This document shows, piece after piece, positions 4,951-51,503 of a stretch of DNA of 64,000 nucleotides. The notes beneath the pieces are model-generated. The model was given only the letters and a program-made list of their open reading frames with translations. It did no database searches and was not told where the DNA came from. This DNA comes from a virus. The stretch lies in IMG/VR virus record IMGVR_UViG_3300032087_006453, positions 6,004 to 70,003 of that record. One strand, written 5' to 3'. The stretch's first letter is position 1. Every line of letters starts with the position of its first letter. Both the position numbers and the translations under genes were made by a program.

Positions 4951-6222
4951 TTAGGACACATAGATGGGAAGGAAATCATTTGCACGATTGTGCGAGAAAT
5001 TCCTGTCCCTGTTCCATCGGTAGTACTTTCGGCAAACCGTTCGGAAGTACTCTACACTTCCCTCCTGGTCTCCGTGAAGAACGTAAAGCGCCTTGTAGCT
5101 GTTGGAATTTGAGAGATGCTTGATCTTGTCGACCATCCGATATGCAACATCTCGAATCTCTTCGGGAAGCGTGATGAGCATCTTGTCAAGCCTTTCGTTG
5201 ACCATGCAATTCATCAGGTACTTGTAGCTGAGCTTGGATTTGACCATCTCACCGATGTAGTTCACGTACTTGAACTTGATTCGCTGAGCATCTTTGCCTG
5301 TGCCGATGCATGCAACCCAACCTTCGTTGTTGTGCACGTCTCGCCTGTTGATCTCATCGATGACTTCGCTAATGGTCATCATCTTGCGTTCCGGCAGAAC
5401 AATGCTAGTGTTTCCTACCTCACGAACCTTCATGATGATTCTCTCAAGCACGTCCGAAGGAATCTCGTTGCCTCCTGTGTCGTATGCTGCGAGAAGATAT
5501 ACCGACTCCTCGTTGCCATAGTCAACATGCACACGGCTGATGGGGTGGACAAGTTCCACAACAACGGTCATCAGGGAGTAGCCGAACAGCTTACATGCGT
5601 GAGCTGCTGCATCGAAGGACTTTCGATCTAGAAGCCCTAGAGCTGCATCGACATACGGAGTCTCCAGCCTTCCTCGAGTGGTTGCACACAGCTGATCGTT
5701 GTGAATGAAGTACTGGAGCATTGCCCCATCTTCTTTGCGCTGCATCATGACGGGATCTGGACCGGCAACCTTGTGAATGAACTCGGTCTCTGAGCTCGGC
5801 ACCTCATCGCGATTGAAGAACTTTCGGAAGCTTCGGGATGCAAGCTTAACCCCAGAGACCTCACCTGGTGTCTCGTAGGAATACACTAGGCCACGCATCA
5901 GTCTGAGTGAAGTCGTCCAGCCATCGCCGCCTGCAACATCGTGAAGTACGTTGTGAGCCTGAGGAGTGTAGTTGAACAAGACAAGCTTGCGACGTGCATC
6001 AAGGTCGAAGCTGAAGAGATTGCCTGCCTTTACGCCCCACTTTGGATTGATTCCAAGAATGCTGTTGAGCTCATCGTTCCACTGCTTCTTGAGATGACGC
6101 CAGCGATTCTTCTTGTCCTCTCGGGTCGTCATCTCGCTGGTAATCCTAGCAACAAGCTTTGGAAACTCGACGTCGAGAAAGATGGACTCTTCCATGGTTT
6201 GATGAGTTCTAAAATTTTTCAT
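4951..6222 (-). CDS. T4 Rnl1-like RNA ligase
   Basis: LFNY, MRGLV, FRKFFN, motif I KEDG, TTRG, VVELV, EGWV, RIKFKY; promoter at 6240-6268 supports a start near 6222. Confidence 0.8.
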   Translation of the reverse strand: MKNFRTHQTMEESIFLDVEFPKLVARITSEMTTREDKKNRWRHLKKQWNDELNSILGINPKWGVKAGNLFSFDLDARRKLVLFNYTPQAHNVLHDVAGGDGWTTSLRLMRGLVYSYETPGEVSGVKLASRSFRKFFNRDEVPSSETEFIHKVAGPDPVMMQRKEDGAMLQYFIHNDQLCATTRGRLETPYVDAALGLLDRKSFDAAAHACKLFGYSLMTVVVELVHPISRVHVDYGNEESVYLLAAYDTGGNEIPSDVLERIIMKVREVGNTSIVLPERKMMTISEVIDEINRRDVHNNEGWVACIGTGKDAQRIKFKYVNYIGEMVKSKLSYKYLMNCMVNERLDKMLITLPEEIRDVAYRMVDKIKHLSNSNSYKALYVLHGDQEGSVEYFRTVCRKYYRWNRDRNFSHNRANDFLPIYVS

Positions 6223-6366
6223 GAATCCCTCCATGCATGATTGTAATTGAGACAGCCTTAGTTTACATCGAAAGAGCAAGAATCAAAAAGAGGTATACCA
6301 GCGGTGCCATCAGAATCGCAAACACGGTATCCTTGATCTGATCGCTCTTGGTGTAGTGTTCGTTGT

Positions 6367-12307: not shown

Positions 12308-13021
12308 TCAGCGAATTATTGCACCAAGAACCCTGTTCTCGCCGCCGCCGTTGGGTGGATCATCCGTAAAGTTGTCGCCACCGCTGTGGATGATCAAGGC
12401 TCTGCCGTAAACATCCTGAAGCGTAAGACGTGGTGCAAGGACCGGAATGTCTGCGTCACCGTCCATGTCAAAGTACAGCGGAGGAAGATCCCCTAGGTGG
12501 CCGTTGCCGTAAGGACCTTGATGAGTTCCTGTCCCACGAGGATCGTAATGGCTACCAGCGGCTAGCCCAATAACAAGCTTGCCATCCTTCATTCCAGGAC
12601 CAAGCTCGCCGTATTCATGGACGTGGAAGCCTCTGAGACCGCCTGCCAGTGGCTTGTAGGAAACCTGCGGCATGAACATGAGGCCGAGGTCTGTATCCTC
12701 GATAGTGATCTGTCCGACCGGCTCACCAGCTCCGATGTGTGTGAGAGTCTGGATGGGAACTGTTACCGATCCAATGTTGAGGTTTTCGTTAATCTGCTTC
12801 GTTGGAATCACGGGCTCGGAGAGATCCATGTATTCCGGGTAGGGCTCGTACTCTTCCTTGAGCATGTGCTGACCAGAAAGAAAGTGCTCGGGATCTGACA
12901 TGAACATTTCCCTATGACCTCTGCTGCAGAAGTGGTAGATCTCACCGTCAGCTTCAACAACCGGGGTTCTTGTTGTCACGTCAATTGGCTTTCCAGAAAC
13001 AGGGCAAATTCGCTTGCTCAT
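12308..13021 (-). CDS. sodC: YHS/TRASH domain fused to Cu/Zn superoxide dismutase
   Basis: CPVSG...YHFCS; GFHVHE, AAGSHYDP, HQGP, GHLGDLP, ALIIHSGGDN, GGGENR. Confidence 0.85.
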   Translation of the reverse strand: MSKRICPVSGKPIDVTTRTPVVEADGEIYHFCSRGHREMFMSDPEHFLSGQHMLKEEYEPYPEYMDLSEPVIPTKQINENLNIGSVTVPIQTLTHIGAGEPVGQITIEDTDLGLMFMPQVSYKPLAGGLRGFHVHEYGELGPGMKDGKLVIGLAAGSHYDPRGTGTHQGPYGNGHLGDLPPLYFDMDGDADIPVLAPRLTLQDVYGRALIIHSGGDNFTDDPPNGGGENRVLGAIIR

Positions 13022-22186: not shown

Positions 22187-22705
22187 TTAGCTCATGTATT
22201 CCTGCCATGGACCTTCACACTCACCGGTTAGTTTGAGATACCTTTCGTAGGTCAAGGGCTTGGGATCCTTAGAAAGGCTGAGGCTTGTTTCATGCAATAG
22301 CCTGTCGCCCTTTTGCTGGTTGCACTTCTTGCAGGCTGTGACAAGGTTTTGCCACGAATATCCTCCGCCCTTGCTCTTCGGAACAACATGGTCTAGCGTT
22401 GATGTTGATCGAGTCAGAGCAATACCGCAGTACTGACACTTGCCTTCGTCTCTTGCAAAGATGTACTTTGGGCAGCAAGGAAGCTGACCCGTGTACTTCT
22501 TCATTACCCTGCGAAGCATGATGACAGAAGGAAGCTTGAACGACTGCCTAGCCGAACTTACATGGCGATCGTAAGTTTCGAGAACTATGACTCGGCCAAG
22601 CATTGAGTTGACCAGTGCTTCGGTCGATGAGACAATAGCTACAGGGCGGAACGCAGCGTCTAGCTTTAGTGCCCTGTAGCTTTCTAGTGTTGTTGCCATG
22701 CTCAT
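22187..22705 (-). CDS. HNH endonuclease (HNH_5 type)
   Basis: IFARDEGKCQYCG, TLDHVVPKSKGG..SWQNLVTACKKCNQQKG. Confidence 0.9.
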   Translation of the reverse strand: MSMATTLESYRALKLDAAFRPVAIVSSTEALVNSMLGRVIVLETYDRHVSSARQSFKLPSVIMLRRVMKKYTGQLPCCPKYIFARDEGKCQYCGIALTRSTSTLDHVVPKSKGGGYSWQNLVTACKKCNQQKGDRLLHETSLSLSKDPKPLTYERYLKLTGECEGPWQEYMS

Positions 22706-22713
22706 AACTACTC

Positions 22714-23637
22714 TCAGGATGCAAGGCTTGTCATCTCATTGCCAAAATCATCACGATATTTCATGAGTGCAAGCTCCTTCTTCTTGCACTCTAGAACAAC
22801 GTCGACGTCTAGACCGCAGTTGTCGAAAGGCTCGTAGTACCACTGACTGTGAGACACAGCGGATGCCTTTTCATCTTCGTACTTCTTGCGACTGTTGGAA
22901 TGATGGCAAACGGGCCGAACTGTTCCCCACGTGTTGGCAGCCATCTTGATTGCTTCCTCGTAGCCCTGATCCTGAGGTCCTAGACTGAAGTGATGGCTGT
23001 CGAAGACAATCGGGATTCCGGTGCGCTCGAAGATGCCCTTGTACAACATCAGTGTGCTGTAGCAGTTTGGCTTGTCATCGTTTTCAACGGTGAGACGACT
23101 TAGTACGGCAGGGCTTAGTAGCTGAATGTTCTTGCAGAAACGTTCCATAGCAGCGTCACGGTCGCCATACGCACCGCCGATATGAATGTTGATCTTGGCT
23201 TCACGGGTTCGAGGTGCACCGATGAAGTCCATGATCTTTCCATGAATCTCCAGATCCTTGACAGAGTTGTAAACAACCTTCTCGGTTGGAGAAGCCATGC
23301 AGTTGAACTGACCGGGATGAAACGACAGTCGATGATTGTGCTCACGAGCATAATCGCCAACCGCCCTTAGCGCTTTCTTGATCTCGTCAACACGAGGCAT
23401 GGTCTCGAGATCATACTCGCTTGCCCACGGAAACAGGTTTGAGCTGATGCGAAACACCTTGATGTCGTGTGCTTCGTTCCACTTTAGAATCTCGAGCAGG
23501 TCTCTAGAACTCTGCAGCCCGAGATTTGCCATATGCGCGACGCCCTTTTTCAAGAAAGTGCGTCTGATTGCAGTGCGATTAGCCTTGATGCCTTGACCAG
23601 TGAGTGTTTCGTTGATGCATGCGTAACCGAGCCTCAT
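22714..23637 (-). CDS. uvsE: UV damage endonuclease
   Basis: MRLGYACIN, FRISSNLFP, RLSFHPGQF, NIHIGG, LTVENDD, IVFDSHH, HHSN, VVLECKKKE. Confidence 0.92.
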   Translation of the reverse strand: MRLGYACINETLTGQGIKANRTAIRRTFLKKGVAHMANLGLQSSRDLLEILKWNEAHDIKVFRISSNLFPWASEYDLETMPRVDEIKKALRAVGDYAREHNHRLSFHPGQFNCMASPTEKVVYNSVKDLEIHGKIMDFIGAPRTREAKINIHIGGAYGDRDAAMERFCKNIQLLSPAVLSRLTVENDDKPNCYSTLMLYKGIFERTGIPIVFDSHHFSLGPQDQGYEEAIKMAANTWGTVRPVCHHSNSRKKYEDEKASAVSHSQWYYEPFDNCGLDVDVVLECKKKELALMKYRDDFGNEMTSLAS

Positions 23638-23661
23638 GTGTTTGCCTCCAAGCATATTAGT

Positions 23662-23694: not shown

Positions 23695-24585
23695 TCAAAA
23701 CAGCAGATCTCGCTTGTCTCCCCAATCTCGGTATGAGTCGGTTCGATCAAATATGGTTGTGTCGGTCAGACCAGGTTCTTTCCCAACATTCCACATCCAG
23801 TGATTCTCTTCCGGTCGATTCTTGGGAATGTACTTCCAAACCTTTGCATCGTAGTTTCCGACCGTAGGGAATGGAGGGAAGTTGTGCTTCTTTTCCATTT
23901 GAGCAAAAGCTAGAGGATCAGAATCTACGGAAGCAACCCCTAGTTCGCCTGCCTTGAGGTTTCTCGAAACTGCAATTGCGTGATGCTCTGAATCCTGCCA
24001 TCCAATCTGCAATGCTCGGCCTAGAACGCCGGTTGAAATGGCAAACCAAACGTGACCAGGATCCCCGTACGCCTCTCGGATGTTTTCGACGACTCGAACA
24101 GCACAGGCTGTGACAAGCTCATGTCGAAGTCCGAGTGGAATAAATGCAGCACCACGTTCCTCCGCCCACTTCTTTGCGTAGCTGTTAAGGTTTGGCATGG
24201 CAGCAATTCGAACGAATCGAACCTCTGCACCTCTCTCAATGCAGACCGCCTGATGATGCGAGATCTTCTTGGAGGCCGGCATGAACAGAACAACCTTCTT
24301 GTTGTAACGTCCAGCTGCTTCAACGATAGAAGGTCCTGCCAGACCGAAGCGAGGCTGAACGTATACGATCGTGTCTTCCTTCGTCGAAGCCATCAGCATG
24401 TCTGCAAATCGGCATTTCGATCCGACCATGTGATCATCGCGAACAACATTTACGCCTTCGTGCCGAGTGACAATCGGAAGTCCGTAAGGATCGATCCATC
24501 CTTCGGTCATTGCCAACCACTCTTCCTTTGATCGAAGCTGAAGGTCTTTGTTGATTCCATCAAGTACATGCTTATCGTGTGCCAT
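23695..24585 (-). CDS. PLP-dependent enzyme (fold type II) of the kind found in phage DNA hypermodification clusters
   Basis: VVRDDHMVGSKCRF (PLP Lys), PRFGLAG, AISTGVL, YDAKVW, WNVG; coupled to the transferase gene. Confidence 0.7.
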   Translation of the reverse strand: MAHDKHVLDGINKDLQLRSKEEWLAMTEGWIDPYGLPIVTRHEGVNVVRDDHMVGSKCRFADMLMASTKEDTIVYVQPRFGLAGPSIVEAAGRYNKKVVLFMPASKKISHHQAVCIERGAEVRFVRIAAMPNLNSYAKKWAEERGAAFIPLGLRHELVTACAVRVVENIREAYGDPGHVWFAISTGVLGRALQIGWQDSEHHAIAVSRNLKAGELGVASVDSDPLAFAQMEKKHNFPPFPTVGNYDAKVWKYIPKNRPEENHWMWNVGKEPGLTDTTIFDRTDSYRDWGDKRDLLF

Positions 24586-25671
24586 TTACCACTCCCACTT
24601 GCTTGTTCCCATCATCCACTTCTGCCGCCCCTTTGGATGGTTTGTAATGGATGAAGTATTCCAAATTGCTGTTCGATCCAAATGCTCGTAAGTCTTCTGC
24701 TTGTTGTCAGGAATGTAGTTCTCAACCCATCGGATGTAGTCACACATGACGTCCTCAAGGTCTCTTGGAGCACCACCTGTATCCCTAACAGCTGCTTCCA
24801 TTACGTAGTCATAGTAGAGATCCTTCTTGTATCGACCTAGCTTCTCGGCGAACAGGTCCATAGATTCCTTTGCGTTCTTACCATAATACATGTGCGACAA
24901 AGGATCTACAAGGTCTGGATAGTAATCTGCAAGATCTGCTGCCGTTGCAGTGAATTGGAAGTGGAATCGCTTCATCCCTCTTTCCTTGTTCCACTCACAC
25001 ATGAAGTCAACAACTTCTCGTATGTTAGCTCTGCGATTTTCCAGATCTCGAATCCCGAAGATGAATTCCCAAGTTGCATCGACAAGATCGAGCATGCACT
25101 CACTGATCCACAGTTTTCCTGGTGTCCTGTATTCAAAGCCAGACTTGTTCAGAGACTCCCATAGATGCTTGCTCGGAAACATTGGTATCTGGTTTCCGAT
25201 TGAGGTAAACATCGGAATGTCATCGTTGTGCTTCACCCATTCCGCCATTTCCTCGCACGTCTTTAACTTTGCCAACTCGGGGATGACTGTGTTTCGATAG
25301 CCATGATCTTCCTCGAAAGATGCTCCGCTTCCCGTGATTCTATGAAACATGAAGATCCATAGCCACTGTCGACATCCGGGCCAATGCTCATGCTGCCTGT
25401 CGTATGATTGGTTACGCTGCTGGTGCTCTTCCGTCCACTTGTAGTACTTTGGTGCGTTACTTCCAAACCAGAGATCCTGCAACATGTTCTGGAATCCGGC
25501 ATGCTTTCGCTCAACCGTATCGTAGATCGTTACGTTCTCGATCAAGTCGTCACCACAAGAACCAATGTACGGATTACCGCCAAGGTTCGAGTAGTTCTGG
25601 ACGTGCTTTGCCTTCTTGTAGTACTCTAGAAAATCGTAGTAGTACTCATTCAGTCTGATCTTGTCTTCCAT
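24586..25671 (-). CDS. Amino acid:DNA transferase (aGPT-Pplase2-like)
   Basis: IYDTVERKHAGF, HRITGSGASF..DHGYRN, FTSIGNQ, FHFQF, DLEDVMCDYIRW; family recognised from memory, not searched; start moved to 25671 (TAATG coupling). Confidence 0.65.
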   Translation of the reverse strand: MEDKIRLNEYYYDFLEYYKKAKHVQNYSNLGGNPYIGSCGDDLIENVTIYDTVERKHAGFQNMLQDLWFGSNAPKYYKWTEEHQQRNQSYDRQHEHWPGCRQWLWIFMFHRITGSGASFEEDHGYRNTVIPELAKLKTCEEMAEWVKHNDDIPMFTSIGNQIPMFPSKHLWESLNKSGFEYRTPGKLWISECMLDLVDATWEFIFGIRDLENRRANIREVVDFMCEWNKERGMKRFHFQFTATAADLADYYPDLVDPLSHMYYGKNAKESMDLFAEKLGRYKKDLYYDYVMEAAVRDTGGAPRDLEDVMCDYIRWVENYIPDNKQKTYEHLDRTAIWNTSSITNHPKGRQKWMMGTSKWEW

Positions 25672-26726
25672 TAAATGCTCCACTTGTAGTGTTCTGGCGA
25701 GATGTGCACCGATTGTGGTCGCTCCATGTACTGAAAGTCCAGCTCGCCTGAATCGTTCTTGAAATGATTTGGCCACTCAATGAATTCGTAATCCGGGTGA
25801 TCACAGAGCACCCGGGTGTGTTCGTTGAACTCATTCACAATCGCCGATCGCTGCTCCCAGGTTCCCCAATACGGCTGGCCCTTGTGATAACCAGTTTTCG
25901 GCAGCTTTCGACTAATGTTCTCGATAGGAATTGCAGCAACTACCTCAACCTGCTTGATTCCGTAAAGTGACTTGACTCGTCCAAGCTCATCGAAATATCT
26001 CCAAACTAGTTCACGCGTGGCTTCAAGGTGAGCTTCGGGTTCGTAGATGCGACAGATGTGGTGACGAATATCGATGTTTCCGAGGTAGGTTCTCAGCTTC
26101 TTGATCCGTGTTTCGTCATGAAACGGCTGAAGCCAGGTGTCGAAACCCTTTACGATTGCGCCGTTCAAAGTTTGCCCGTCGTTTCTTGACAGCGCAGCTT
26201 CCGGATGCCATGCAGAAAGGGAGTGCGAATCTCCAAACACAACAAAGTCTCGGCCAAGATGCTCTTGCCTGATTGTCTTAGCACGACTGCAGACCTCGTC
26301 AATCTTGTCAAAGTCCAAGTTCTTGAACGAATCAGGAACCCAAGGCTTCACACGAGTCTTGAGCAGAGTTCCGTACATCGGGCAATCGATGTCAAGAGAG
26401 AACAGTTCGCCTTCGAACCGCTCAAACATTCGGGCCTTTGCGGCGAGCTTGTCCCACGAAGAAAGCTTTGGATCCTTTCCGTCTGCAACTCTTTGCTTAT
26501 TTTCATCCGCAAGTTCTTGAAGCTGCTTCTCAGATGAAAGGAAGTAGTTGATGGACTTTGCCCCGACCTTCCATTCCATGCCGTGCTCTAGGTAAACGCG
26601 TTCCTCATTCGACCAATCAGAGTTGAAACCAACTTCTGTATCGAGACAATTGGCCCACATCCTGCCCCAACCGGTTCGATGCGAGTAAGCACGGTTTGCG
26701 TGGTTGTTAATCGGACTTATGATCAT
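25671..26726 (-). CDS. Protein with C-terminal SGNH/GDSL-like domain, first gene of the modification operon
   Basis: VFGDSHS, LGNIDIRHH, SVHISP. Confidence 0.55.
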   Translation of the reverse strand: MIISPINNHANRAYSHRTGWGRMWANCLDTEVGFNSDWSNEERVYLEHGMEWKVGAKSINYFLSSEKQLQELADENKQRVADGKDPKLSSWDKLAAKARMFERFEGELFSLDIDCPMYGTLLKTRVKPWVPDSFKNLDFDKIDEVCSRAKTIRQEHLGRDFVVFGDSHSLSAWHPEAALSRNDGQTLNGAIVKGFDTWLQPFHDETRIKKLRTYLGNIDIRHHICRIYEPEAHLEATRELVWRYFDELGRVKSLYGIKQVEVVAAIPIENISRKLPKTGYHKGQPYWGTWEQRSAIVNEFNEHTRVLCDHPDYEFIEWPNHFKNDSGELDFQYMERPQSVHISPEHYKWSI

Positions 26727-27902: not shown

Positions 27903-29270
27903 CTAGGGCATCAAGCCCAAGCCTCTGAGGAATCTTAGAACGTTCTCTTTGCTTCTATCTTCGTAACCGCCACTCTCCGAGTCTAGAAACATCTTCTCGG
28001 CAGTTGCTTTCTGATACCCTTCTTCAGGCTGGCTTCCTGACAGGCTTCGGCGCTTGCGTCGAGCTTCTCCAATAAGGGACCTGTATGCGTCCTCTTCAGC
28101 GGCAGCCATGGCTTTGCCAATAGCCGGCCCCTTCAGACCTTGACCCATAAGTTCCTTCGGATTTGCTGCCGGAGGTGAAGATGCAAACTTCAAAAATCCC
28201 GATGCAATATTCTCAGGAACTCCCCCATGCCTTGCAAATTCTGAGACTGCCTCAGACGGAGAGCCGATTCTCTTGAACTCCTTCTTTAGCTTTACTGCAG
28301 TGGAAGGTGTGATCTCAGATAGGGACATCAGCATATTCGCGACATCAATTGTCTTACGGTCGTACCTCATCTTGTCAAGAGCTTTCGTGATCTTCTTTTG
28401 ATTGTCGTCAACAATCATGAAAGCAAGTTGGACAGGCACGCTGTTTGACGAAACCGCCAGAGAAGGATCGGCATTCAACCCCGCGAGTATCTGAGGAAGA
28501 AGATCTGTTCTCTCGACAAGTTCCATGTAGTACTCTGGACGAACCGCCGACTTGATTCCCTTCGCGAACTCGTCAGTAATTCTTTCAGCAGACATTGCGG
28601 GGTCAGACCAAAGGTCGTTGTCATCCAAGATTGCCTGAAGGGTTTCTTTGTCGAGGGCAGAATCCATCCTTGCTGCGAAGCGAAGTGCCCTAAGGATTCT
28701 AAGCTTGTCTTCATCAAATCTACGGGCAGGATCTCCTACTGCACGAATTTTCTTCGAGCGCAAATCATCAATGCCCCCGACGTAATCAACAATCTCCCCT
28801 GCATCGATGTCGTAGAACAACGCGTTGACAGTTAGGTCTCGACGTGCTACATCTTGATCGATTGTTGTGAACTCAACGCTGTCAGGCCTTCGACCCTTTC
28901 CGATGTCCTTTCGGAATGTTGCAATCTCGTACTCACTACCTTCAGGAGTCCATGCACGAACAACTCCGAACATCTTTCCTGTGACGTCAAGCTTCAGGCT
29001 TTTGTCCTGAGAAAGAATGTCCATGACTCTTTCAGGCGATGCACCCGTTGTTAGGTCATAGTCTTTCGGCTCCTTGTCCATCAAGACATCGCGGACGGCA
29101 CCACCGACAACGTAAAGCTCTTCGCCAGAAGCCTTCATCATCTCATGTATTGCGAGCAAATCCTCTGGCAGGTTCATTCGAAAGGAAACCCGCTGTGGCT
29201 TTGCAGCCTCAGCAAGGATGCTACGAACAAACAAGCGTAGCTCGTTAATCGTCTTCTTGTTCCTCATCAT
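27903..29270 (-). CDS. cca: tRNA nucleotidyltransferase (CCA-adding enzyme, class II) with leader
   Basis: YVVGGAVRD, KDYDLTT, EIATFR, DVARRDLTVNAL, DYVGG, RFDEDKLRILRALRF, SAERI; N-terminal ELRLFVRSILAE|A. Confidence 0.88.
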   Translation of the reverse strand: MMRNKKTINELRLFVRSILAEAAKPQRVSFRMNLPEDLLAIHEMMKASGEELYVVGGAVRDVLMDKEPKDYDLTTGASPERVMDILSQDKSLKLDVTGKMFGVVRAWTPEGSEYEIATFRKDIGKGRRPDSVEFTTIDQDVARRDLTVNALFYDIDAGEIVDYVGGIDDLRSKKIRAVGDPARRFDEDKLRILRALRFAARMDSALDKETLQAILDDNDLWSDPAMSAERITDEFAKGIKSAVRPEYYMELVERTDLLPQILAGLNADPSLAVSSNSVPVQLAFMIVDDNQKKITKALDKMRYDRKTIDVANMLMSLSEITPSTAVKLKKEFKRIGSPSEAVSEFARHGGVPENIASGFLKFASSPPAANPKELMGQGLKGPAIGKAMAAAEEDAYRSLIGEARRKRRSLSGSQPEEGYQKATAEKMFLDSESGGYEDRSKENVLRFLRGLGLMP

Positions 29271-30823: not shown

Positions 30824-31096
30824 TCAATAAATATCACGAAGCATGGCAATCATGCTTTCCTGAAACCTTGGGTCTTTTGCAATCACCTTGGGGTCGTTGC
30901 CAAGCTCTTCAGAGAATGCGTCGCAAAGTGGCTGAGCGATCTTCTCTAGAGCCCTCAGACAAACATTCCTTGCAGTGGAATGATTCATCTTGTCCCCAGA
31001 TTCCGTCATGCGCTCAGCAATTTCACGATACCCAATTCCGTCAGGAGCCTTTGAGCCGTATCCGTGATCAAACTTCTTTCCGTTAGGCATTCCCAT
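30824..31096 (-). CDS. Stand-alone sigma region 4.2-like HTH protein
   Basis: GYREIAERMTESGDKMNHSTARNVCLRALEKI; own GGAGG RBS inside the end of the sigma gene. Confidence 0.6.
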   Translation of the reverse strand: MGMPNGKKFDHGYGSKAPDGIGYREIAERMTESGDKMNHSTARNVCLRALEKIAQPLCDAFSEELGNDPKVIAKDPRFQESMIAMLRDIY

Positions 31097-31814
31097 CTTG
31101 TTCCTCCAGATACTTTCGGTCACTTTCATCAGGTTCAATTCCGAAGCGCATGCGAAGCACTGCCTCTTCACGAGGAGACAAGCTTCGAAGTGCGTCTCGA
31201 ATTATTGACTGCATCTTTGAATTGTCGATGGCATCGGATGGATCGATCATGTTCTCGTCGGGAATTACTTCGCCAAGCTTACGAGAACCCTCTTCAGATC
31301 CAACCTCTGCATCCAAGGAAACAAATCCGTGATGCATAGAACGAACACGGCGAAGGAGCTTCACACTGACGTCCAGTGCATCCGCCAACTCCTCCGCCGT
31401 TGGAAGAATACCGAATTCTTCCTCGTACTCTTTCTCGTACTCGTTCGCTTTCCATGCAATCAACCGAAGGTGAGACGGAATCCTTACGTCGGTTTTGTGG
31501 TTTCCAATGTGCTTAAGCACAGCTTGACGAATCCACCAGCAGGCGTATGTTGAAAACTTGAAGCCCCTGGTATGATCGAAACGATCGACCGCTTTCATCA
31601 AGCCAATGTTCGATTCCTGAATGAGGTCTTCAAAATCAGCACCACGATTCTGATACTTCTTGGCAATAGAAACCGCCAACCGAAGATTTGCTGAAACCAT
31701 CTGGTCTCGTGCTGACTTATCGCCTGCCTTAATCCTCTTAGCTAGTTCTACTTCCTCTTCCCTCGTCAGTAGTTTGTGACTGCCAACATTGCTGAAATAA
31801 GAGGATAAACTCAT
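31083..31814 (-). CDS. Sigma-70 family factor (regions 1.2-4.1, lacking the 4.2 HTH)
   Basis: LLTREEEVELAKRI, ANLRLAVSIAKKY, DLIQESNIGLMKAVDRFD..RGFKFSTYACWWIRQ, LSPREEAVLRMRFG followed shortly by a stop. Confidence 0.88.
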   Translation of the reverse strand: MSLSSYFSNVGSHKLLTREEEVELAKRIKAGDKSARDQMVSANLRLAVSIAKKYQNRGADFEDLIQESNIGLMKAVDRFDHTRGFKFSTYACWWIRQAVLKHIGNHKTDVRIPSHLRLIAWKANEYEKEYEEEFGILPTAEELADALDVSVKLLRRVRSMHHGFVSLDAEVGSEEGSRKLGEVIPDENMIDPSDAIDNSKMQSIIRDALRSLSPREEAVLRMRFGIEPDESDRKYLEEQDGNA

Positions 31815-32047
31815 GCTGCTCCCTTTCTGTTTGAGATCCACTGTTGATGTGCCTTTCGTCGATTCTCGCGAATCTCAATCTCTCGATAGAGATAGCAAGC
31901 ATTCAACTCCAGCTCATGACGAACCTTAGGATCCTTCGTGCGACCAATGACTCGGCGAATGCCACTGAGCATGTTGCGAAGAACACTCTCATCCATCACA
32001 GCCAGGTCATATGTGTTGAGTGGCAAAGACTTGTTACGCAATTCCAA
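31811..32047 (-). CDS. Hypothetical protein
   Basis: 78-aa ORF overlapping the sigma start. Confidence 0.55.
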   Translation of the reverse strand: MELRNKSLPLNTYDLAVMDESVLRNMLSGIRRVIGRTKDPKVRHELELNACYLYREIEIRENRRKAHQQWISNRKGAA

Positions 32048-32139: not shown

Positions 32140-33738
32140 TCAGATTTCTGTTTCGTCAGAAATCATTGCTGCACCAACGGAAAGGAAGTTCACCGAAACC
32201 GAGACAGCATTCTCGAGTGCTGATGTGGCAACAAGGGTAGGATCGATGATTCCTGACTCCACCATGTTGCAGTACTGCTCGTTTCGAGCATCATAGCCGT
32301 ATTCAGCGTTTCTTGAACGTAGAACCTTCTGAATCACGATATCAGGAACTCCACCAGCATTTTCAATGATCTGCCTCAGCGGAGCCGTGCATGCACGAGA
32401 AACAACCTCTGCTCCCACTCGAAAGCTTCCGGAACTGTTCTTGGGAACCTTTAGACCCTTCGATGCCTTTGCCAAAGCTGACCCACCGCCTGGAAGAATT
32501 CCTGAAACAACCGCGGCGCGTGTTGCGTGTAGTGCATCATCAACACGGTCCTTTCTTTCCTGGAGTTCTATCTGAGTGCTTCCGCCCACTCGAAGAACAC
32601 AGATTCCTGAAGACAGTCGTCTTACTCTACGAAGTAGGACCGCCTTGTGTTCATCTGAAATGCTTGGATCTTCTGTTTGGGACTTTAGTTCAGAAATCCT
32701 TTCATCAACTTCACTATCGTCAGTACTCGTTCCGATGAAGATACTTCTGCGTCGATGAACGACAACCTTTGAACATGTTCCTAAATCCTCGATCGAAGCA
32801 TCCTTTAGATCATCGATGTCCGCAGCTCCAAACACCCGGGTTCCCAAAAGGAATGCAAGGTCATCAAGTGCGTTCACTCTTCCTTGCCCGAACTCCGGAG
32901 ATGCAATTGCACAAACCTTCAGAACATTCTTCATCCTGTTCAAAACTAGCATCTGAAGTGCTTCACCTTCAATGCCGTCTGCCACAATTAGAAGTGGCGA
33001 GGAAGATGAGTGAATCTTTTCAAGGATAGGAACGATTTCCTGAAGCGTTTCAATGGTCTTGTTTACAATGAGGATCCTAGGGTTCTCGAGTGTACACGTC
33101 ATCCTCTGCTGATCATCGGCAAAGTAAGGAGACAAATATCCACGATCGATCTCGGTACCATCAATGACCTCTAGAGAACTCTTGAATCCCCTGGCCTCTT
33201 CGACGGTAACGGGTCCATCCGGACCTACCGCCTCGATTGCTTCGACAATGATCTTGGAAATGTCCTCCTCACCGTTGGCGCTGATGAGAGCAACGTTTGA
33301 GATTTGATCGTCGTCGCCAACAGGGGTTGACATGTTCTGAAGGGAATCATTGATCTTCGAATGTGCCCATATCATTCCCCTTTTGAGATCAGCATAATCG
33401 TAGCCAGCCTCGAGTGCTCGCATTCCCTCATTGCAGAGTGCTTGAGCCAAGACGGTTGCTGTGGTTGTTCCGTCTCCGGCAACTTCCGCAGTTCTCCCCG
33501 CAGCCTCCTTGACAAGCTGAACTCCCAAGTCTGGGTACTGATCTCTTAGGTTCAATGCCTTTGCAACAGTCACGCCGTCCTTTGTCAGAATAGGAGGACC
33601 GTGATCCTGCTCGATTACAACGTTCCGACCACGAGGACCCATGGTCACTCGTACTGCACCTGCTAGCACGTTAATGCCATCCAGCATCTTTCTTCGTGCT
33701 GAGACATCGAACTCAACGACGCGATCTTGTCTAGACAT
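32140..33738 (-). CDS. groEL: Chaperonin GroEL (phage-encoded)
   Basis: TMGPRGRNV, TKDGVTVA, AGDGTTTATVLA, DRGYLSPYF, ERKDRVDDALHATRAA, GGG, GIIDP; no GGM tail. Confidence 0.95.
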   Translation of the reverse strand: MSRQDRVVEFDVSARRKMLDGINVLAGAVRVTMGPRGRNVVIEQDHGPPILTKDGVTVAKALNLRDQYPDLGVQLVKEAAGRTAEVAGDGTTTATVLAQALCNEGMRALEAGYDYADLKRGMIWAHSKINDSLQNMSTPVGDDDQISNVALISANGEEDISKIIVEAIEAVGPDGPVTVEEARGFKSSLEVIDGTEIDRGYLSPYFADDQQRMTCTLENPRILIVNKTIETLQEIVPILEKIHSSSSPLLIVADGIEGEALQMLVLNRMKNVLKVCAIASPEFGQGRVNALDDLAFLLGTRVFGAADIDDLKDASIEDLGTCSKVVVHRRRSIFIGTSTDDSEVDERISELKSQTEDPSISDEHKAVLLRRVRRLSSGICVLRVGGSTQIELQERKDRVDDALHATRAAVVSGILPGGGSALAKASKGLKVPKNSSGSFRVGAEVVSRACTAPLRQIIENAGGVPDIVIQKVLRSRNAEYGYDARNEQYCNMVESGIIDPTLVATSALENAVSVSVNFLSVGAAMISDETEI

Positions 33739-41168: not shown

Positions 41169-41782
41169 ACAGCGCCTCCGCCTCCGCCTGAAGCACCGAC
41201 AGCAATTGGCTGCTCTAGCTCGTCAGGATCTTCACCGATAGAGATGTCATGGCGAATGTCTAACAATTCCACGAACTCTTCCGCTATATCTGAATCATAA
41301 TTCTTTTCCAGGAACTGTATAGCCTTGTTGACAATGATGGCTTCCATGTCGAGAAGAGTGTCGTAGTTTTTGACGAGTCTAGCAACATCCGATGCGAACA
41401 TGTCGACGTCAAGCTTTTCATCAGCCTCAGTTAGCAAATAGCGACGAAGTGAATACCTCGATTCAGTCTGTAGCTCTGCAGATTTTCTGGCGTTAGCTTC
41501 GTAGTCGACCAAGATTCCTTCGATGGCATCATCGACAGATTTCTCCAAGGACTCCTTGTCATCCGGAGATACTTCCTCGACCTCGTCCTCTTCGTCGTCC
41601 TGATCTTCCTCCTCTTCCTCGTCTTCCTCCTGCTCGCGAATCATGTCCGCTTCTGCAAACTCTCTAGACTCACGGCCAGCTTCGATGGAATCCATTGCAA
41701 TTTCTTCAGAAGGAACAGCGCCAACGGTAGAAATGTCTTCATTCAGAAGTGCTCTTCTTGCTTTATCAAAATTCAAACTCAT
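41165..41782 (-). CDS. Acidic leader-bearing protein (possible head core/scaffold)
   Basis: ARRALLNE|D, poly-E/D tract, ESRYSLRRYLLTE|A. Confidence 0.55.
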   Translation of the reverse strand: MSLNFDKARRALLNEDISTVGAVPSEEIAMDSIEAGRESREFAEADMIREQEEDEEEEEDQDDEEDEVEEVSPDDKESLEKSVDDAIEGILVDYEANARKSAELQTESRYSLRRYLLTEADEKLDVDMFASDVARLVKNYDTLLDMEAIIVNKAIQFLEKNYDSDIAEEFVELLDIRHDISIGEDPDELEQPIAVGASGGGGGAV

Positions 41783-42480
41783 TGTTCCCTTCCTTCGTAA
41801 GCTGCGGCAGCTCTCTCGGCCCTCTTGAATCTAGCGTCAATCTTATCCCAATTCAACTCTCGAATCATTGCAAAAACATAAGCCTTTCTGTCATCGAGAT
41901 AATCTCTGACGTACAGGTCAGGCATTACCGCAAGACTTATGACTGGCGTGACATTCGGAGGAAGGGCATGCATACTATCCACAATGAGATTCATGTACCT
42001 CTTGAGATCATAGTTGTATGCAGTAACGACAAAGTTGCAAGCTGTCATTGCGCATGCAATGAAGTCCTTTTGCCAAGAATCAAACGTTCCCCAGTCCCTC
42101 TCTAGCCTCATGTACGTCAGGGTGTCCATGGCTAGGCTTGACTGAGGATCCCCAATATTCGTTGAGTGCAAACCTAGGAAAAAACTGAGCTGTAGCAGGC
42201 GGCCTTCCTGGGCCTTCAGAGCACTGTATGATGATGCATCTGGCATAGAAACATCGCGGGTTGCAGAATCGAGCTGAGCGCTGACGTGGTTCAACTCGGA
42301 AGCATACAGGTCCAACTTGCTCTGCAGTATCTTCTTTGACTTCTCGCTCAGCGATTCGGTCTCAACCTTCGTCTGCGGAGACTGAACTACGTAGGCCTCG
42401 TTGATTGTTGCAACGTGAGAACTTTTCCTGACGGCATTACGCAGCTCTCTTACATTGATGATGTCCTCGAGCTTCATCAC
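41779..42480 (-). CDS. Degenerate Fe/Mn superoxide dismutase-fold protein
   Basis: LERDWGTFDSWQKDF, PVISL, Y..DY..DRKAYV...LNWDKIDARF; the DxWEH metal motif is absent. Confidence 0.65.
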   Translation of the reverse strand: MMKLEDIINVRELRNAVRKSSHVATINEAYVVQSPQTKVETESLSEKSKKILQSKLDLYASELNHVSAQLDSATRDVSMPDASSYSALKAQEGRLLQLSFFLGLHSTNIGDPQSSLAMDTLTYMRLERDWGTFDSWQKDFIACAMTACNFVVTAYNYDLKRYMNLIVDSMHALPPNVTPVISLAVMPDLYVRDYLDDRKAYVFAMIRELNWDKIDARFKRAERAAAAYEGREQ

Positions 42481-44062: not shown

Positions 44063-44470
44063 CTAAATATGTACTCTCCTAACTAGGATTCCAACAGACT
44101 CTAGTAGTTCTATGCCGCTGCTATCACGATATTCCTCGTCATAGATCACTTCGCCGATTCCAGCATTGATGATAGCCTTTGCACACATTCTGCACGGAGA
44201 GAGTGTAACATACAGCTTCTTCTTTTTCGGATTGTTGTAGTCGAGTTTGATGAGAGCGTTTATCTCCGAATGCAGCATGCCTGACTTACCAGGCTCCGTA
44301 GACTCGGCTTCGTTCGGTCCACCAGCGTAGTTACCATTGTAGCCCATGGCAAGCACCTGTGTATTGTCCGAAGTTACTACAACGGAGCCAACCTTGAAAC
44401 GAGGATCGTAAGATCTTTCTGAAACAGACTTTGCAAACCTCATCCAGATTTCGTCCCAACTAGGACGCAT
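44063..44470 (-). CDS. dCMP deaminase (ComEB-like)
   Basis: RPSWD, VGSVV, GYNG, HSEINA, TLSPCRMC. Confidence 0.9.
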   Translation of the reverse strand: MRPSWDEIWMRFAKSVSERSYDPRFKVGSVVVTSDNTQVLAMGYNGNYAGGPNEAESTEPGKSGMLHSEINALIKLDYNNPKKKKLYVTLSPCRMCAKAIINAGIGEVIYDEEYRDSSGIELLESVGILVRRVHI

Positions 44471-45302
44471 CAAAAATCTCCTCGATGTGCTTTTCAGCAG
44501 GCAGAGTAAATCCAGCAGCCTTTTTATGACCGCCGCCGCCGAACTTCTTAGCAACCTCACTGACGTCGACCGTCTCGTGGAATGCCCTTAGGGAAACCTT
44601 GGTCATGTGATCAGAATGATCCCAATACCAGATTACGGCAAAGTCACAATCTGGTGCGAGCCTAGATCCGATCTCCGACATCCAGTGTGGTGAGTTGACT
44701 ATCAGAACGCTGTGGCCGTCAAGCTTTCGAGGCTGTGCTCGTTCACAAACCTTTTTGACAACAGTCTTGGAGTATGCAAGAATGAACGATCCACGCTTGA
44801 CTGCATCGTCGAAAACACTGTCATCCTCAAACTTCTCGTACTCCTCGAACTCCCACGGCACCATGTCAAAGGCAGCGCTGAACTCCTTGCTGTACGGAAG
44901 TTCCCACTTCCATAGATCCCTGTCCTCAATGTACTGAATGAACTTTGGTGCTTCCTTTCCTGGGTGAAAGAAATTCCATGCTAGCATTGCGCCGCTATGG
45001 TTCATGTCGAACACGGCGTGTGAAACGTCGTGAAGTTCAACCATTGCGGACTTGTGGTGATCGATGATGATGAAGCTCTCTGCTTCTTCAATCATCTTCT
45101 TGGTCGTTGCATTGTTGAACGAAAAATCAAGAACAGCAACGTTCTTTCCCTTTACGTCAGGCGGAGGATCACCGTGACTACACGCATGATATTCCGCTCG
45201 ATTACCAAGAAACTTCCAAGCTGAGAAAGCGGCGCCGAATCCATCATTACAATTGGCGTGATAGATTACGCAATCCACTTCACTTGGTCTGGCAACTGTC
45301 AT
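44460..45302 (-). CDS. DHH/DHHA1 phosphoesterase (NrnB-like)
   Basis: YHANCNDG, LDFS, IDHH, HSGA, IEDRDLW, SLR, GGGGHKKAAGF. Confidence 0.88.
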   Translation of the reverse strand: MTVARPSEVDCVIYHANCNDGFGAAFSAWKFLGNRAEYHACSHGDPPPDVKGKNVAVLDFSFNNATTKKMIEEAESFIIIDHHKSAMVELHDVSHAVFDMNHSGAMLAWNFFHPGKEAPKFIQYIEDRDLWKWELPYSKEFSAAFDMVPWEFEEYEKFEDDSVFDDAVKRGSFILAYSKTVVKKVCERAQPRKLDGHSVLIVNSPHWMSEIGSRLAPDCDFAVIWYWDHSDHMTKVSLRAFHETVDVSEVAKKFGGGGHKKAAGFTLPAEKHIEEIFDAS

Positions 45303-45739
45303 CAGGAAACTCCTGTACTTCCAAAACCGCCGGTCCCACGTTCAGTAACATTCTCAAACAAGCTTTCTTCGTTTACAACTTCAATGCTGTCATAGAAAAC
45401 CGGCAGCAAAAGGAACTGAATAATCTTTTCCCCAGGGGAGATTACAACTTCGTCTTTACTTACATTCATCAGGTTAATATGTATCTCGCCCTGATAGTCT
45501 TCGTCGACTACGGATGCACCAACATGCAAACCTTTCTTAACAGCGACTCCGCTCTTGTTGAACGCAATTAGTGCATGACCCTTTGGAACATCGGCTTTAA
45601 TTCCGCTCGGAATGAGACACGATTCTCCAGGACTTAGACGAATATATTCGCGACCCTGAGGAACGTAGAAATCGATTCCCGCACTCTTTTCCGTGCCTCG
45701 GGTTGGTGTCTTTACTTCTCTGACCTTGCTGATTCTCAT
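45302..45739 (-). CDS. dut: Trimeric dUTPase
   Basis: SAGIDF, NKSG, VVDEDYQGEI, IIQ, RGTGGFGSTG. Confidence 0.9.
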   Translation of the reverse strand: MRISKVREVKTPTRGTEKSAGIDFYVPQGREYIRLSPGESCLIPSGIKADVPKGHALIAFNKSGVAVKKGLHVGASVVDEDYQGEIHINLMNVSKDEVVISPGEKIIQFLLLPVFYDSIEVVNEESLFENVTERGTGGFGSTGVS

Positions 45740-46005
45740 GACTTTCCCTCAATGTGGTTTTGCCAGGCGCCGAGATACGCAACGGCATCTAGCAGATTAT
45801 CTTCCTTGAAATTGTAAGACTGGCGGCTTAGCTTTAGAGCAACGAGTGCAATGTACATATCATGACTAGTCATTTGCTTTCCGGACATACCCGAAGCAAT
45901 CATTGCTGCTCGCTGCATACCCTCGCTAAACGGTCCGTACTCTCGCTCCTTTTCCTCGGAACGTTGGTTGACAATTTCATTTGCCTTTTCTAGAATGTTA
46001 GACAT
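45736..46005 (-). CDS. DUF6378-like small all-alpha protein (putative nucleotide pyrophosphatase)
   Basis: ILEKA..IV..R...YG, LKLSR, KEDNLLDAVAY. Confidence 0.6.
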   Translation of the reverse strand: MSNILEKANEIVNQRSEEKEREYGPFSEGMQRAAMIASGMSGKQMTSHDMYIALVALKLSRQSYNFKEDNLLDAVAYLGAWQNHIEGKS

Positions 46006-46876
46006 AGATTAGCTCCATTTTTTCTTCGGTCCAACTGTTAATCTCTTCCTTGGTAAGCTTGTAGTATGGTAGATTCACGTGCATTCGTTGTAGCCCTTCG
46101 AGAGTTAGCGAATCACGAAGCGTGTACTTCACTAGGTCTGGATACGGAACGCTATCGGGATGATTGGCTCCGTAGTTTGCAACAATCTTGTCCATCATTG
46201 CAAAGTGAGATTCGTAAATGTGGAACGAACCTGCCGAATGATAGTAGTGTCCTAGCTCAATCTTATCTCCGGAAACTCTCGCATTGAGCTCGTTGAGCAT
46301 CAGTTGCTGATACATGCAGAACGTAAACACATCATTGCAGAAACCGAAGACTGCATCATTGGACCTCATGTGAACGCCTAGGTGCAGCTTGTTGTCTCGG
46401 ATGAAGAAATGAATGTACTGCGTGCAAGGATAATCCTTGTTGTTCTTTCCCTTGTGCTGGTATCCGTTGATGGTAATGCTTGCGCGACGAGTATCACGAT
46501 CCCGAATCAACTCATCACGAACCCACTCCCACTGATTTAGCCCGGTCCTCTCGTTGATGTTTCCGTGAATCCAAACTCCGTAGTTTGACTCAACCCTGTT
46601 TTCTTCATCAGCAATGTCTCGCCAAATCTTTGCAAGCTTACCGATGTTGCTTACATCCGGATTGTGCGACAAATACCACAGCCATTCTGTAACTGCATAT
46701 GAAGGCCGAAACTTTCGGGCAGGAACTTCAATAGAAAGAGCTGTTGGATCTTCGATCATCATTGAGTGCCAAAGGATCTCTCTCTGCTTCGAACCTCTGG
46801 AGTTTACGATCGAACCCTTGCTTAGCAGTTTCAGAGATTCAACAAAAGCTTCGTTTAGATTCTTGTAAGTTTGCAT
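45998..46876 (-). CDS. ThyA-fold enzyme, probable dCMP hydroxymethylase (Asp-type)
   Basis: SNYG, DTRRA, DYPCT (catalytic Cys), MRSNDAVFGFCND with Asp at the E. coli N177 / T4 gp42 D179 position, SFHIY. Confidence 0.75.
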   Translation of the reverse strand: MQTYKNLNEAFVESLKLLSKGSIVNSRGSKQREILWHSMMIEDPTALSIEVPARKFRPSYAVTEWLWYLSHNPDVSNIGKLAKIWRDIADEENRVESNYGVWIHGNINERTGLNQWEWVRDELIRDRDTRRASITINGYQHKGKNNKDYPCTQYIHFFIRDNKLHLGVHMRSNDAVFGFCNDVFTFCMYQQLMLNELNARVSGDKIELGHYYHSAGSFHIYESHFAMMDKIVANYGANHPDSVPYPDLVKYTLRDSLTLEGLQRMHVNLPYYKLTKEEINSWTEEKMELIYV

Positions 46877-51071: not shown

Positions 51072-51503
51072 TTATACACTTTTGTGGTTGCTGATAAACC
51101 AGCTATGGTAATGATTTAGCGCATGATCTTCTGGCGAAACCTCGTGGGCTCTGCCTTTAATGAAAATCATCCAGGCGTCGTTGGCGTATTTTCCACAACC
51201 GTGAAGATCGCTGGCAATATTCCAATTGCCAGCGATGTACTGTTCTGCAAACTTCTTTAGAGATTTTGCTCTTCGATTGTAGAAACCTAGTGGCCGCATC
51301 ATCTCAACTAAGCTTTCGTGATCAGCACAAAGAATACTTTCTGCTGTTGGCCACTTATCAAAAAACTCGTCGACGATCTTGTCAAGCTGCTTCCTCCTGG
51401 TTTGGTTCAAGAGAATGCAGCAAACAAGAATTTTGTACTCGTCTCCCGGATAGTGTTCCTGTATGAGGTCATGAGGAGAAACTGGCGCTACGTAAGAATC
51501 CAA
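51072..51503 (-). CDS. MBD4-like HhH-GPD mismatch DNA glycosylase
   Basis: SP..LIQE, KILVCCILLNQT, PLGFYNRRA, LHGCGKYANDAW.IF, PEDHALNHYHSW mirror the MBD4 catalytic domain. Confidence 0.85.
   Translation of the reverse strand: MDSYVAPVSPHDLIQEHYPGDEYKILVCCILLNQTRRKQLDKIVDEFFDKWPTAESILCADHESLVEMMRPLGFYNRRAKSLKKFAEQYIAGNWNIASDLHGCGKYANDAWMIFIKGRAHEVSPEDHALNHYHSWFISNHKSV

Follow-up and report, generated by a model that had tools for sequence, protein, structure and literature searches.

Two kinds of described system stand closest to the locus presented here. In the thymidine hypermodification of phages M6, ViI, PaMx11 and PhiW-14, a deoxyuridine monophosphate (dUMP) hydroxymethylase, a 5-hydroxymethyluracil (hmU) DNA kinase, an amino acid:DNA transferase (AADT, PF18724) and a pyridoxal phosphate (PLP) decarboxylase, gp52 or gp226, are described (available portions of PMC8989533, PMC5889632 and PMC11472151). 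T4-type DNA that contains 5-hydroxymethylcytosine (hmC) is decorated by glucosyltransferases in T-even phages or by arabinosyltransferases in RB69, according to the available portions of PMC2993671 and PMC6024577. Here we analyse three adjoining genes, A, B and C, at 23695..26726 on the minus strand of a 64,000-nucleotide stretch of viral DNA, in the following called the window. It comprises bases 6004-70003 of the 70,003-bp IMG/VR record IMGVR_UViG_3300032087_006453, for which CheckV gives a completeness of ~31%. With a probability of roughly 0.55, this trio is a DNA-pyrimidine hypermodification module built like those of M6, ViI and PaMx11, wired to hmC and with the kinase absent. The broader statement, that the module modifies a DNA pyrimidine, is one that we make with good confidence. 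To our knowledge, every amino-acid-type DNA hypermodification characterised so far is found on thymine, and a DNA kinase takes its first step. If our reading is true, amino-acid-type chemistry would be extended to cytosine, and an SGNH serine enzyme would be a new enzyme class in DNA base modification.

Compared with the thymidine pathways, the locus has in common a ThyA-fold hydroxymethylase, a helical protein of base-flipping type with a Glu-x3-Cys motif, and a PLP enzyme whose PHROG and lysine are the same; gene clustering and fusions between components are likewise found in both. It differs in that the hydroxymethylase is of deoxycytidine monophosphate (dCMP) type and not of dUMP type. Furthermore, the trio comes without a detected P-loop kinase or HMUDK_hel protein, and an SGNH-fold protein is its third partner and fusion partner. 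In the case of the T4-type hmC systems, the likeness consists of a gp42-like dCMP hydroxymethylase in T4-like genomes and of a secondary decoration that is post-replicative, whereas the partners at our locus are AADT-like, PLP and SGNH proteins in place of a T4-like sugar transferase.

An earlier note, made from the letters of the window alone, had described three translationally coupled genes headed by an SGNH-like protein with GDSH...GNID...VH motifs, followed by an aGPT-Pplase2 amino acid:DNA transferase and a PLP enzyme of the ViI/M6 kind. It had also seen no P-loop kinase in the window and had considered its ThyA-fold enzyme to be dCMP-specific. It had inferred a possibly new pathway that puts an amino acid-derived group on hmC or on hmU made from it, with the SGNH protein as a possible activator of the hydroxyl or acylator of the product. 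Our analysis confirms the observation and supports this interpretation at each point where a test was made. A full-text literature search found neither a description of the trio nor any report of an SGNH enzyme with a DNA base as its substrate; the work that it found deals with thymidine, adenine and carboxymethyl-cytosine hypermodification. The main text of PMC8989533 mentions no esterase or hydrolase and has cytosine in its reference list only, and its supplementary metavirome figures could show similar sets.

Layout and linkage of the trio

Gene A (25671..26726, 351 aa), gene B (24586..25671, 361 aa) and gene C (23695..24585, 296 aa) follow one another on the minus strand. The longest open reading frame (ORF) of B, 24586..25776, has 396 aa and starts 35 codons earlier. 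We placed the start of B at the ATG at 25671 because 91% of the long ORF is all that the 120 listed homologues cover and because this ATG overlaps the stop codon of A. At the A/B junction, catttaATGgaa, the sequence TAATG thus has one base common to the TAA stop of A and the ATG of B. At the B/C junction, gtggTAAATGgca, the sequence TAAATG brings the ATG of C directly against the stop of B. These minus-strand ORFs and their two junctions bear out the translational coupling that had been proposed. Gene A is preceded by a ribosome-binding site, GGAGG, 5 nt ahead of its ATG. A scan for promoters and terminators gave fewer sites than were found in shuffled sequences.

The module is common: in IMG/VR, at least 567 relatives of B were detected by a pattern scan. 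Of these, the best 80 loci were retained, which together with the window gives 81; these are the top-scoring loci with near-duplicates included, so that the counts are not those of a random sample. Neighbouring genes were found with hidden Markov models (HMMs) built from the neighbour families. In 62/81 loci, B has both A and C at a distance of up to 6 kb; A alone is this close in 4/81 (2 of them cut by a contig end) and C alone in 2/81. Where at least 4 kb is available on both sides of B, A and C are present in 25 of 26 loci. The clustering of A, B and C is far beyond chance.

The order of the window, A-B-C, is found again in loci L003, L005, L006, L015, L048 and L057, and most T4-like contigs have the order B-(paralogue)-C-A. 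Long relatives of A (745-796 aa) are A-B fusions in all six cases; the A domain (E 1e-91 to 1e-101) comes first and the B domain (E 1e-75 to 1e-118) second. Since all six carry both domains, A and B are natural fusion partners.

The PLP enzyme, the transferase-like protein and the SGNH-fold protein

In the case of gene C, Pfam gave a sub-threshold PALP match (2.4e-6; 27.5 bits, cut-off 35), and the match to phrog_7093 (1.9e-37) extended from position 15 to position 278 of a profile of 279. The hypermodification genes of phage M6 were located by Pfam, and M6 gp52 proved to be a core member of the same PHROG (3.6e-159). A relative of C from locus L024 matches it at 2.5e-38. M6 gp52 is reported as a PLP-dependent enzyme that decarboxylates DNA-linked amino acids, and its Lys36 has been proposed to form the internal aldimine (available portions of PMC8989533). 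In our alignment A5, consisting of 19 sequences that include M6 gp52 and the domain from Erythrobacter phage R6L, Lys57 of C is invariant and aligns with Lys36 of gp52. Residues F239, Y245, D246, K248, W250 and N266 are invariant as well, and a C-terminal PFP..YD.K.W...WN pattern is common to C and gp52. The product of gene C is predicted to be a PLP enzyme of fold type II that belongs to the M6 gp52 family, with Lys57 as its Schiff-base lysine. The PHROG match and the aligned lysine agree with the earlier assignment to the ViI/M6 kind. Beta-replacement and elimination are also among the reactions of fold-type II PLP enzymes.

Domains like C were found in three cultured phage records. In R6L, this domain belongs to a protein of 807 aa in which an N6/N4 DNA methylase domain is present too. 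This fusion, together with the kinship to M6 gp52, points to C as a member of a DNA-associated PLP family.

The model of gene B is all-helical and helix-hairpin-helix-glycosylase-like (AlphaFold2 (AF2), pLDDT 93.6). By sequence, B has no Pfam family above cut-off and no PHROG match, and no precomputed Pfam domain is present in the 120 listed of its 285 database relatives at E<=1e-3. Neither blastn of the 3-kb region nor tblastn of B gave a match in 50,697 phage records, and a PF18724 profile search of the own contig gave nothing at E<=1.

Four observations support the placement of B in the aGPT-Pplase/AADT structural superfamily as a divergent relative of the AADTs, as far as models and remote matches can indicate. 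Firstly, one B-family member, P0101, aligns its residues 81-304 with positions 5-232 of 232 of the PF18724 profile, at 15.6 bits and E 0.013 (cut-off 26.2). Secondly, the ESM Atlas neighbours of B at a score of 0.97 belong to clusters in which 13-14% of the members bear PF18723, and a cluster at score 0.92 has PF18723 in 36% and PF18724 in 12% of its members. Thirdly, the best solved match of the B model in VIA-align is 8z2m, i.e. PaMx11 gp46/PUGT (Z 9.6, root-mean-square deviation 4.0, 207 aligned residues, model 12-321 onto chain 8-258). Fourthly, the predicted viral structures of BFVD gave at rank 1 a protein of 37% identity, 'Amino acid:DNA transferase domain-containing' by its UniProt name, at rank 4 the SP10 5-hmdU DNA kinase (E 1.4e-3), and at ranks 5, 7-10 and 12 AADT, Pplase1 or HMUDK_hel proteins. 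An endonuclease III takes rank 11, the protein at rank 6 is unnamed, and matches beyond rank 12 are noise.

Conserved residues point in the same direction. In alignment A1 (34 sequences of the B family) E306, C310, D311 and the loops HRxTGSG (110-115) and TSxGxQ (156-161) are invariant. In an alignment of 18 AADTs, the invariant residues include E243 and C247, in the arrangement Glu243-Thr244-x2-Cys247. Cys247 and Glu243 of PUGT lie at the flipped base (available portions of PMC11472151), and in M6 gp51 and ViI gp247 mutation of the conserved cysteine or of the nearby glutamate abolished activity (available portions of PMC8989533). Asp307 of B, conserved in at least 90% of the family, stands where AADTs have Thr244, a residue that contacts thymine O4 via a cation (available portions of PMC11472151). 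Thus, B is set apart from the AADTs by lying outside PF18724 in sequence, by its two extra invariant loops, and by Asp307 in place of Thr244. As a side observation, the M6 PF18723 protein (within L002:16686-18232) ends in IEHTLCEF, with Glu-x3-Cys as in AADTs and B.

Several results weigh against this placement and thereby against the proposed module. None of 86 B-family members (34 + 52 scanned) reaches the cut-off of PF18724. Profile-profile comparison by hhalign of B with M6 gp51 or with AADT alignments of 18-47 sequences gave probabilities of 1.9%, 1.2% and 8.5%, the aligned stretch being local with 24-63 columns. PDB sequences searched with the B profile (hmmsearch) yielded no meaningful match, and Foldseek of the B model against the PDB gave no match at E<=1e-3. 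In VIA-align, 8z2m is followed by archaeal 8-oxoG glycosylases (AGOG), the queuine-salvage family DUF2419 and Mag2; the 8-oxoG glycosylases and DUF2419, at Z 8.3-9.4, are tied with the Z of 9.6 of 8z2m, and helical models can reach Z below ~13 without kinship. The same glycosylase-like folds are the nearest fold neighbours of PUGT in its own paper (available portions of PMC11472151). The correspondence of C310 and E306 of B with Cys247 and Glu243 of the AADTs comes from alignment-range offsets and not from a residue-level superposition. The motifs DxDPxY, ERRxxR and FGPW..K, invariant in 18 AADTs, have no evident counterpart in B, and no significant alignment maps them onto it.

Altogether, the aGPT-Pplase2 assignment of the earlier note survives in part. 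The superfamily fold (8z2m at Z 9.6, BFVD) and the Glu-x3-Cys motif stand, and membership in the PF18724 family itself (0/86) does not. The profile-profile comparison with AADTs failed to link the two families, with 1.2-8.5% probability only.

Searches against M6 were similarly silent. The B profile had the AADT gene as its top match among the M6 ORFs, not significantly (E 1.1), and hhalign of B with the M6 kinase-region ORF, whose first ~165 residues are a wrong-frame extension, gave none. A further candidate motif, 'RxVNIxEVxxxxCxW', was matched by a local AADT HMM in the 120 B proteins (best E 0.0015). It was rejected as catalytic motif since its Cys and Glu are not kept across the B family.

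Gene A matched no Pfam family at E<=0.1, and so no GDSL/SGNH family of Pfam; it does match phrog_17781 and phrog_13881. Its AF2 model (pLDDT 89.4) gave 32 Foldseek matches in the PDB at E<=1e-3 with probability 1.00, ~200 aligned columns and target TM values of 0.5-0.63. Those listed are esterases, acylhydrolases and lipases of GDSL/SGNH type, together with a few designed scaffolds. Platelet-activating factor (PAF) acetylhydrolase, sialate O-acetylesterase and carbohydrate esterases are examples, and they cover the C-terminal ~200 residues. The model suggests an N-terminal alpha/beta domain (~1-150) and a C-terminal SGNH/GDSL-fold domain (~150-350). An ESM Atlas search with the N-terminal ~150 residues gave no match.

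In an alignment of 22 sequences of the A family, GDSH (165-168), G189, GNID (216-219) and H341 are invariant or at least 90% conserved. Reading these motifs against the strands of the predicted model, we assign Ser167 of GDSH as putative nucleophile, Asn217 of GNID and His341 near the C-terminus as further putative catalytic residues. The Asp of the DxxH motif, three residues ahead of the His, is lacking; an invariant E335 lies nearby. Since GDSH, GNID and His341 are conserved in the 22 sequences, the catalytic apparatus looks intact. An SGNH-like protein at the head of the operon is what had been proposed, and the fold found by Foldseek and the conserved residues confirm it. With esterases and acyltransferases such as PAF acetylhydrolase and sialate O-acetylesterase, A has in common the fold and the Ser/Asn/His blocks. 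It is unlike them in its extra ~150-residue N-terminal domain, its DNA-acting genomic partners and its lack of a Pfam GDSL match. A complex prediction of A with B gave no verdict either way (score 0.00).

Target base, kinase search and proposed pathway

The ThyA-fold pyrimidine hydroxymethylase of the window (45998..46876, minus strand; Thymidylat_synt 1.7e-19) lies 21 kb from the trio. Its motif MRSNDAVFGFCND compares with MRSNDVVFGFRND in an annotated T4-type gp42, MRSND..FG..ND being common to both. The Asp falls on what we take to be the specificity slot of the ThyA fold, where an Asn presumably reads uracil in thymidylate synthase. The best matches of the enzyme in cultured phages include annotated gp42 dCMP hydroxymethylases at ~30% identity. 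Hydroxymethylases of dCMP type lie within 6 kb of B in 52/81 loci. The earlier view of this enzyme as dCMP-specific is upheld by the gp42-type motif and its Asp. Likewise, as to whether Asp- or Asn-type synthases accompany B, Asp is found in 43/43 ThyA-like neighbours as well as in the window enzyme. The enzyme is presumed, from its motif, to be the source of 5-hydroxymethyl-dCMP (5-hm-dCMP).

The window also encodes a dCMP deaminase (44066..44470, minus strand; dCMP_cyt_deam_1 1.1e-21, and 4.7e-41 with the HMM of neighbour cluster 7). Such a deaminase is no more than 6 kb away from B in 31/81 loci, and the hydroxymethylase and B often flank it. This adjacency keeps an hmU route open, a point against hmC as target: dCMP or 5-hm-dCMP would be deaminated, hmU would enter the DNA, and A, B and C would then act on it as the same module. 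The route would be in keeping with the AADTs, every characterised one of which acts on hmU derivatives (available portions of PMC8989533). However, the hydroxymethylases are of Asp type and most like gp42. Furthermore, ThyX is present in 3/5 large related contigs, including one that is 99% complete, so that thymine is probably made normally and the deaminase can simply feed the synthesis of deoxythymidine monophosphate (dTMP). In T4, dCMP deaminase feeds dTMP synthesis. In addition, Asp307 in place of the AADT Thr244 would fit the N4 amino group of cytosine better. Overall, we consider an hmU substrate rather unlikely, and hmC is the favoured target by about two to one.

In M6, the kinase is a separate 187-aa P-loop ORF (L002:16686-17249) with the HMUDK_hel (PF18723) protein next to it on the downstream side, and both were searched for. 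PF18723 had no match at E<=1 in the own 70-kb record and none above cut-off in five related contigs, which measure 102-167 kb and include the 99%-complete one. A homologue of the M6 P-loop kinase was not found at E<=1 in the own record and the same five contigs. Pfam detected no P-loop kinase among 52 ORFs of the window, and the Walker A motif is absent from the 11 neighbour clusters checked. The kinase absence first noted for the window holds in the Pfam scan and in both searches of the 70-kb record, and likewise in the five large relatives. Because the record represents ~31% of a genome, the window alone proves little on this point, and the 99%-complete relative carries the weight.

From these components, a four-step pathway may be proposed for the hmC-directed module. 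In step one, the hydroxymethylase, which belongs to the gp42-like family, would provide 5-hm-dCMP, and this would be incorporated into the phage DNA. In step two, by analogy with the AADT mechanism, B would flip the modified base into its pocket, and Cys310 would attack C6 with the help of Glu306. The 5-CH2-O substituent would then leave, and an amino acid or amine would add to the exocyclic methylene. In step three, A would act in place of the 5-hmU DNA kinase, most likely by an acyl transfer that makes the hydroxyl a leaving group; alternatively, A would trim or acylate the product. In step four, C, judging from its homology, would decarboxylate the attached amino acid to an amine.

The main argument for an activating role of A is positional: the SGNH domain is fused to, or lies beside, an aGPT-Pplase-type domain, where a P-loop kinase sits in canonical 5-hmU DNA kinases. 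The role of A is nevertheless the weakest step of what we infer; the target base, the added group and the SGNH function are all deduced. That A is the activating enzyme seems to us possible, with the odds somewhat against it. The more specific version is tentative to a slightly greater degree: the SGNH domain would be a DNA-base O-acyltransferase, its ester would replace phosphorylation, B would swap the ester for an amino acid, and C would decarboxylate it. If this version is true, the outcome would be a cytosine of aminoalkyl type that has not been described, and uncultured T4-like and jumbo phages would commonly have it. A related mark would then be expected in the cultured Aeromonas phages 44RR2.8t, 31 and 25, where the decoration of hmC has been an open question since 2010.

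At the level of the whole module, further points count against the proposal. In 13/81 loci, neither A nor C lies within 6 kb of B, and 11 of these 13 have instead an HhH-GPD protein, B, a distant B paralogue and a SegE-like nuclease. No candidate for the acyl donor is identified. A kinase of an unrecognised type could lie elsewhere in the genome, of which the window is ~31%. Finally, the cultured Aeromonas phages with A have no detectable B or C.

DNA modified in the proposed way would be resistant to restriction enzymes, and surveys of these phages that rely on sequencing could be distorted by it. New DNA-modifying transferases would also be useful as tools for labelling hmC.

Cultured phages with gene A and other genes of the window

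Homologues of A occur in 43 cultured phage records, i.e. 38 of Aeromonas, 3 of Tenacibaculum and 2 of Stenotrophomonas phages. In Aeromonas phage 44RR2.8t, the first 335 residues of ORF233c (795 aa) are an A-family domain (E 3e-92). The phage also has a gene 42, whose product is 56% identical to T4-type gp42 (E 4.6e-82). The N-terminal A domain and the presence of gene 42 are thus points of likeness to our locus. It differs from the trio in that the C-terminal part of ORF233c is not detectably B, giving a weak partial match to PF18723 (E 0.0036), and in that no C-type gene was found in the cultured Aeromonas phages. The same fusion architecture occurs in avDM9-HANS, and relatives of ORF233c are present in phage 31 and others. 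A sodium:solute symporter (L092:5399-6919; SSF 6.2e-53), an unusual cargo for a phage, lies directly upstream of ORF233c and could import the attached group.

Phages 44RR, 31 and 25 have genes 42 and 56 and no glucosyltransferase genes, and the question whether gene-42 phages without glucosyltransferase, RB69 and JS98 being named, modify hm-dCMP otherwise was left open (available portions of PMC2993671). Gene A is a concrete candidate for the fate of hmC in 44RR2.8t, 31 and 25. As these phages are cultured, the idea is testable with existing collections.

The context of A in phage 25 leads to a different role for this protein. Here, a stand-alone A is preceded by a gene pair (L096:355-1416 and 1460-2533) consisting of a UDP-galactopyranose mutase (GLF 5e-54) and a 358-aa protein without Pfam match. 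This hints at a furanose sugar on the hmC of this phage, and a tailoring esterase or acetyltransferase fits such a context as well as an activating enzyme does, to the disadvantage of the latter. As a tailoring enzyme, A would O- or N-acylate, or de-acylate, an hmC-linked sugar or the group installed by B and C. The hydroxyl would then need no activation, B eliminating water directly after the Cys attack, or would be activated by an enzyme of the host or by one not yet recognised. The best structural matches of A, which are acetyl-esterases of sugars and lipids, agree with this, as does the PaMx11 pathway, which ends with an acetyltransferase (available portions of PMC8989533).

A glycosyltransferase may also be at hand. 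Cluster 8 (phrog_1574, 324 aa), which looks glycosyltransferase-like if its FIDSD motif is read as DxD-like, lies 3-5 kb downstream of B in many loci and is absent in the window. On the other hand, A is fused to B in 6/6 long forms and to a kinase-helical-like domain in the 44RR-type phages, and the tailoring enzymes of known pathways are separate genes. On balance, we find a tailoring role of A unlikely.

Downstream of the trio, a UvdE UV-damage endonuclease (22714-23655, minus strand; Pfam 1.3e-58) starts 39 nt past gene C and is followed by an HNH endonuclease (22187-22705, minus strand; Pfam). The UvdE family (cluster 148) occurs in 2/81 clustered sources, the window being one of them, and UvdE is probably a local insertion outside the module. 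That the trio has no DNA-modifying role, B being a glycosylase/repair or DUF2419-like salvage protein and A and C serving small-molecule metabolism, is very improbable: this same-strand UvdE and HNH arrangement and the tie of B between AADT and the 8-oxoG glycosylases and queuine-salvage enzyme would suit it, but UvdE is hardly ever a neighbour, the neighbours that are kept are the gp42-like hydroxymethylase, the deaminase and replication genes, C has motifs in common with the DNA-acting M6 gp52 and a family member fused to a DNA methylase in R6L, and the invariant Glu-x3-Cys is a hallmark of AADTs and not of glycosylases.

Several families accompany B in the related loci and are absent in the window. 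Cluster 4 (335 aa) lies within 6 kb of B in 38/81 loci and matches neither Pfam nor PHROG. Its hhalign comparison with B (42%, E 2.6e-4, common LED..C) makes it a probable distant paralogue of B, and it is inserted between B and C in many related T4-like contigs among L010-L080 (e.g. L064:5022-6026 and L028:10646-11617). A C5 cytosine methylase is sometimes present in related loci among L010-L080 and is not found in the window. Many related loci also carry clamp, clamp-loader, UvsX, UvsW and RegA genes.

Within the window, Pfam identified genes that mark a large phage: DNA polymerase III alpha, GroEL (32140-33738), a sigma-70 factor (31083-31841), RecA, a DnaB-like helicase, a class II-like ribonucleotide reductase, a gp32-like protein and two superoxide dismutases, one of Cu/Zn type (12308-13021) and one Fe/Mn-like (41779-42480). 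Pfam further found a CCA-adding/poly(A) polymerase-type nucleotidyltransferase (27903-29270) and a T4 Rnl1-like RNA ligase (4951-6279). All of these for which coordinates are given are on the minus strand, as are the following three. A dUTPase (45302..45739; Pfam 2.5e-24) near the hydroxymethylase belongs to nucleotide-pool control and is tied to the trio by position only. A second, canonical PALP enzyme (796-1707; Pfam 9.2e-71, full length) lies far from the trio and resembles an auxiliary metabolic gene of the cysteine synthase/threonine dehydratase type. Lastly, a small HhH-GPD glycosylase-like protein (51075-51503; Pfam 7.4e-15) is of the same family as neighbour cluster 19, which sits directly upstream of B in 11 loci without A and C; the protein may read or protect the modified base.

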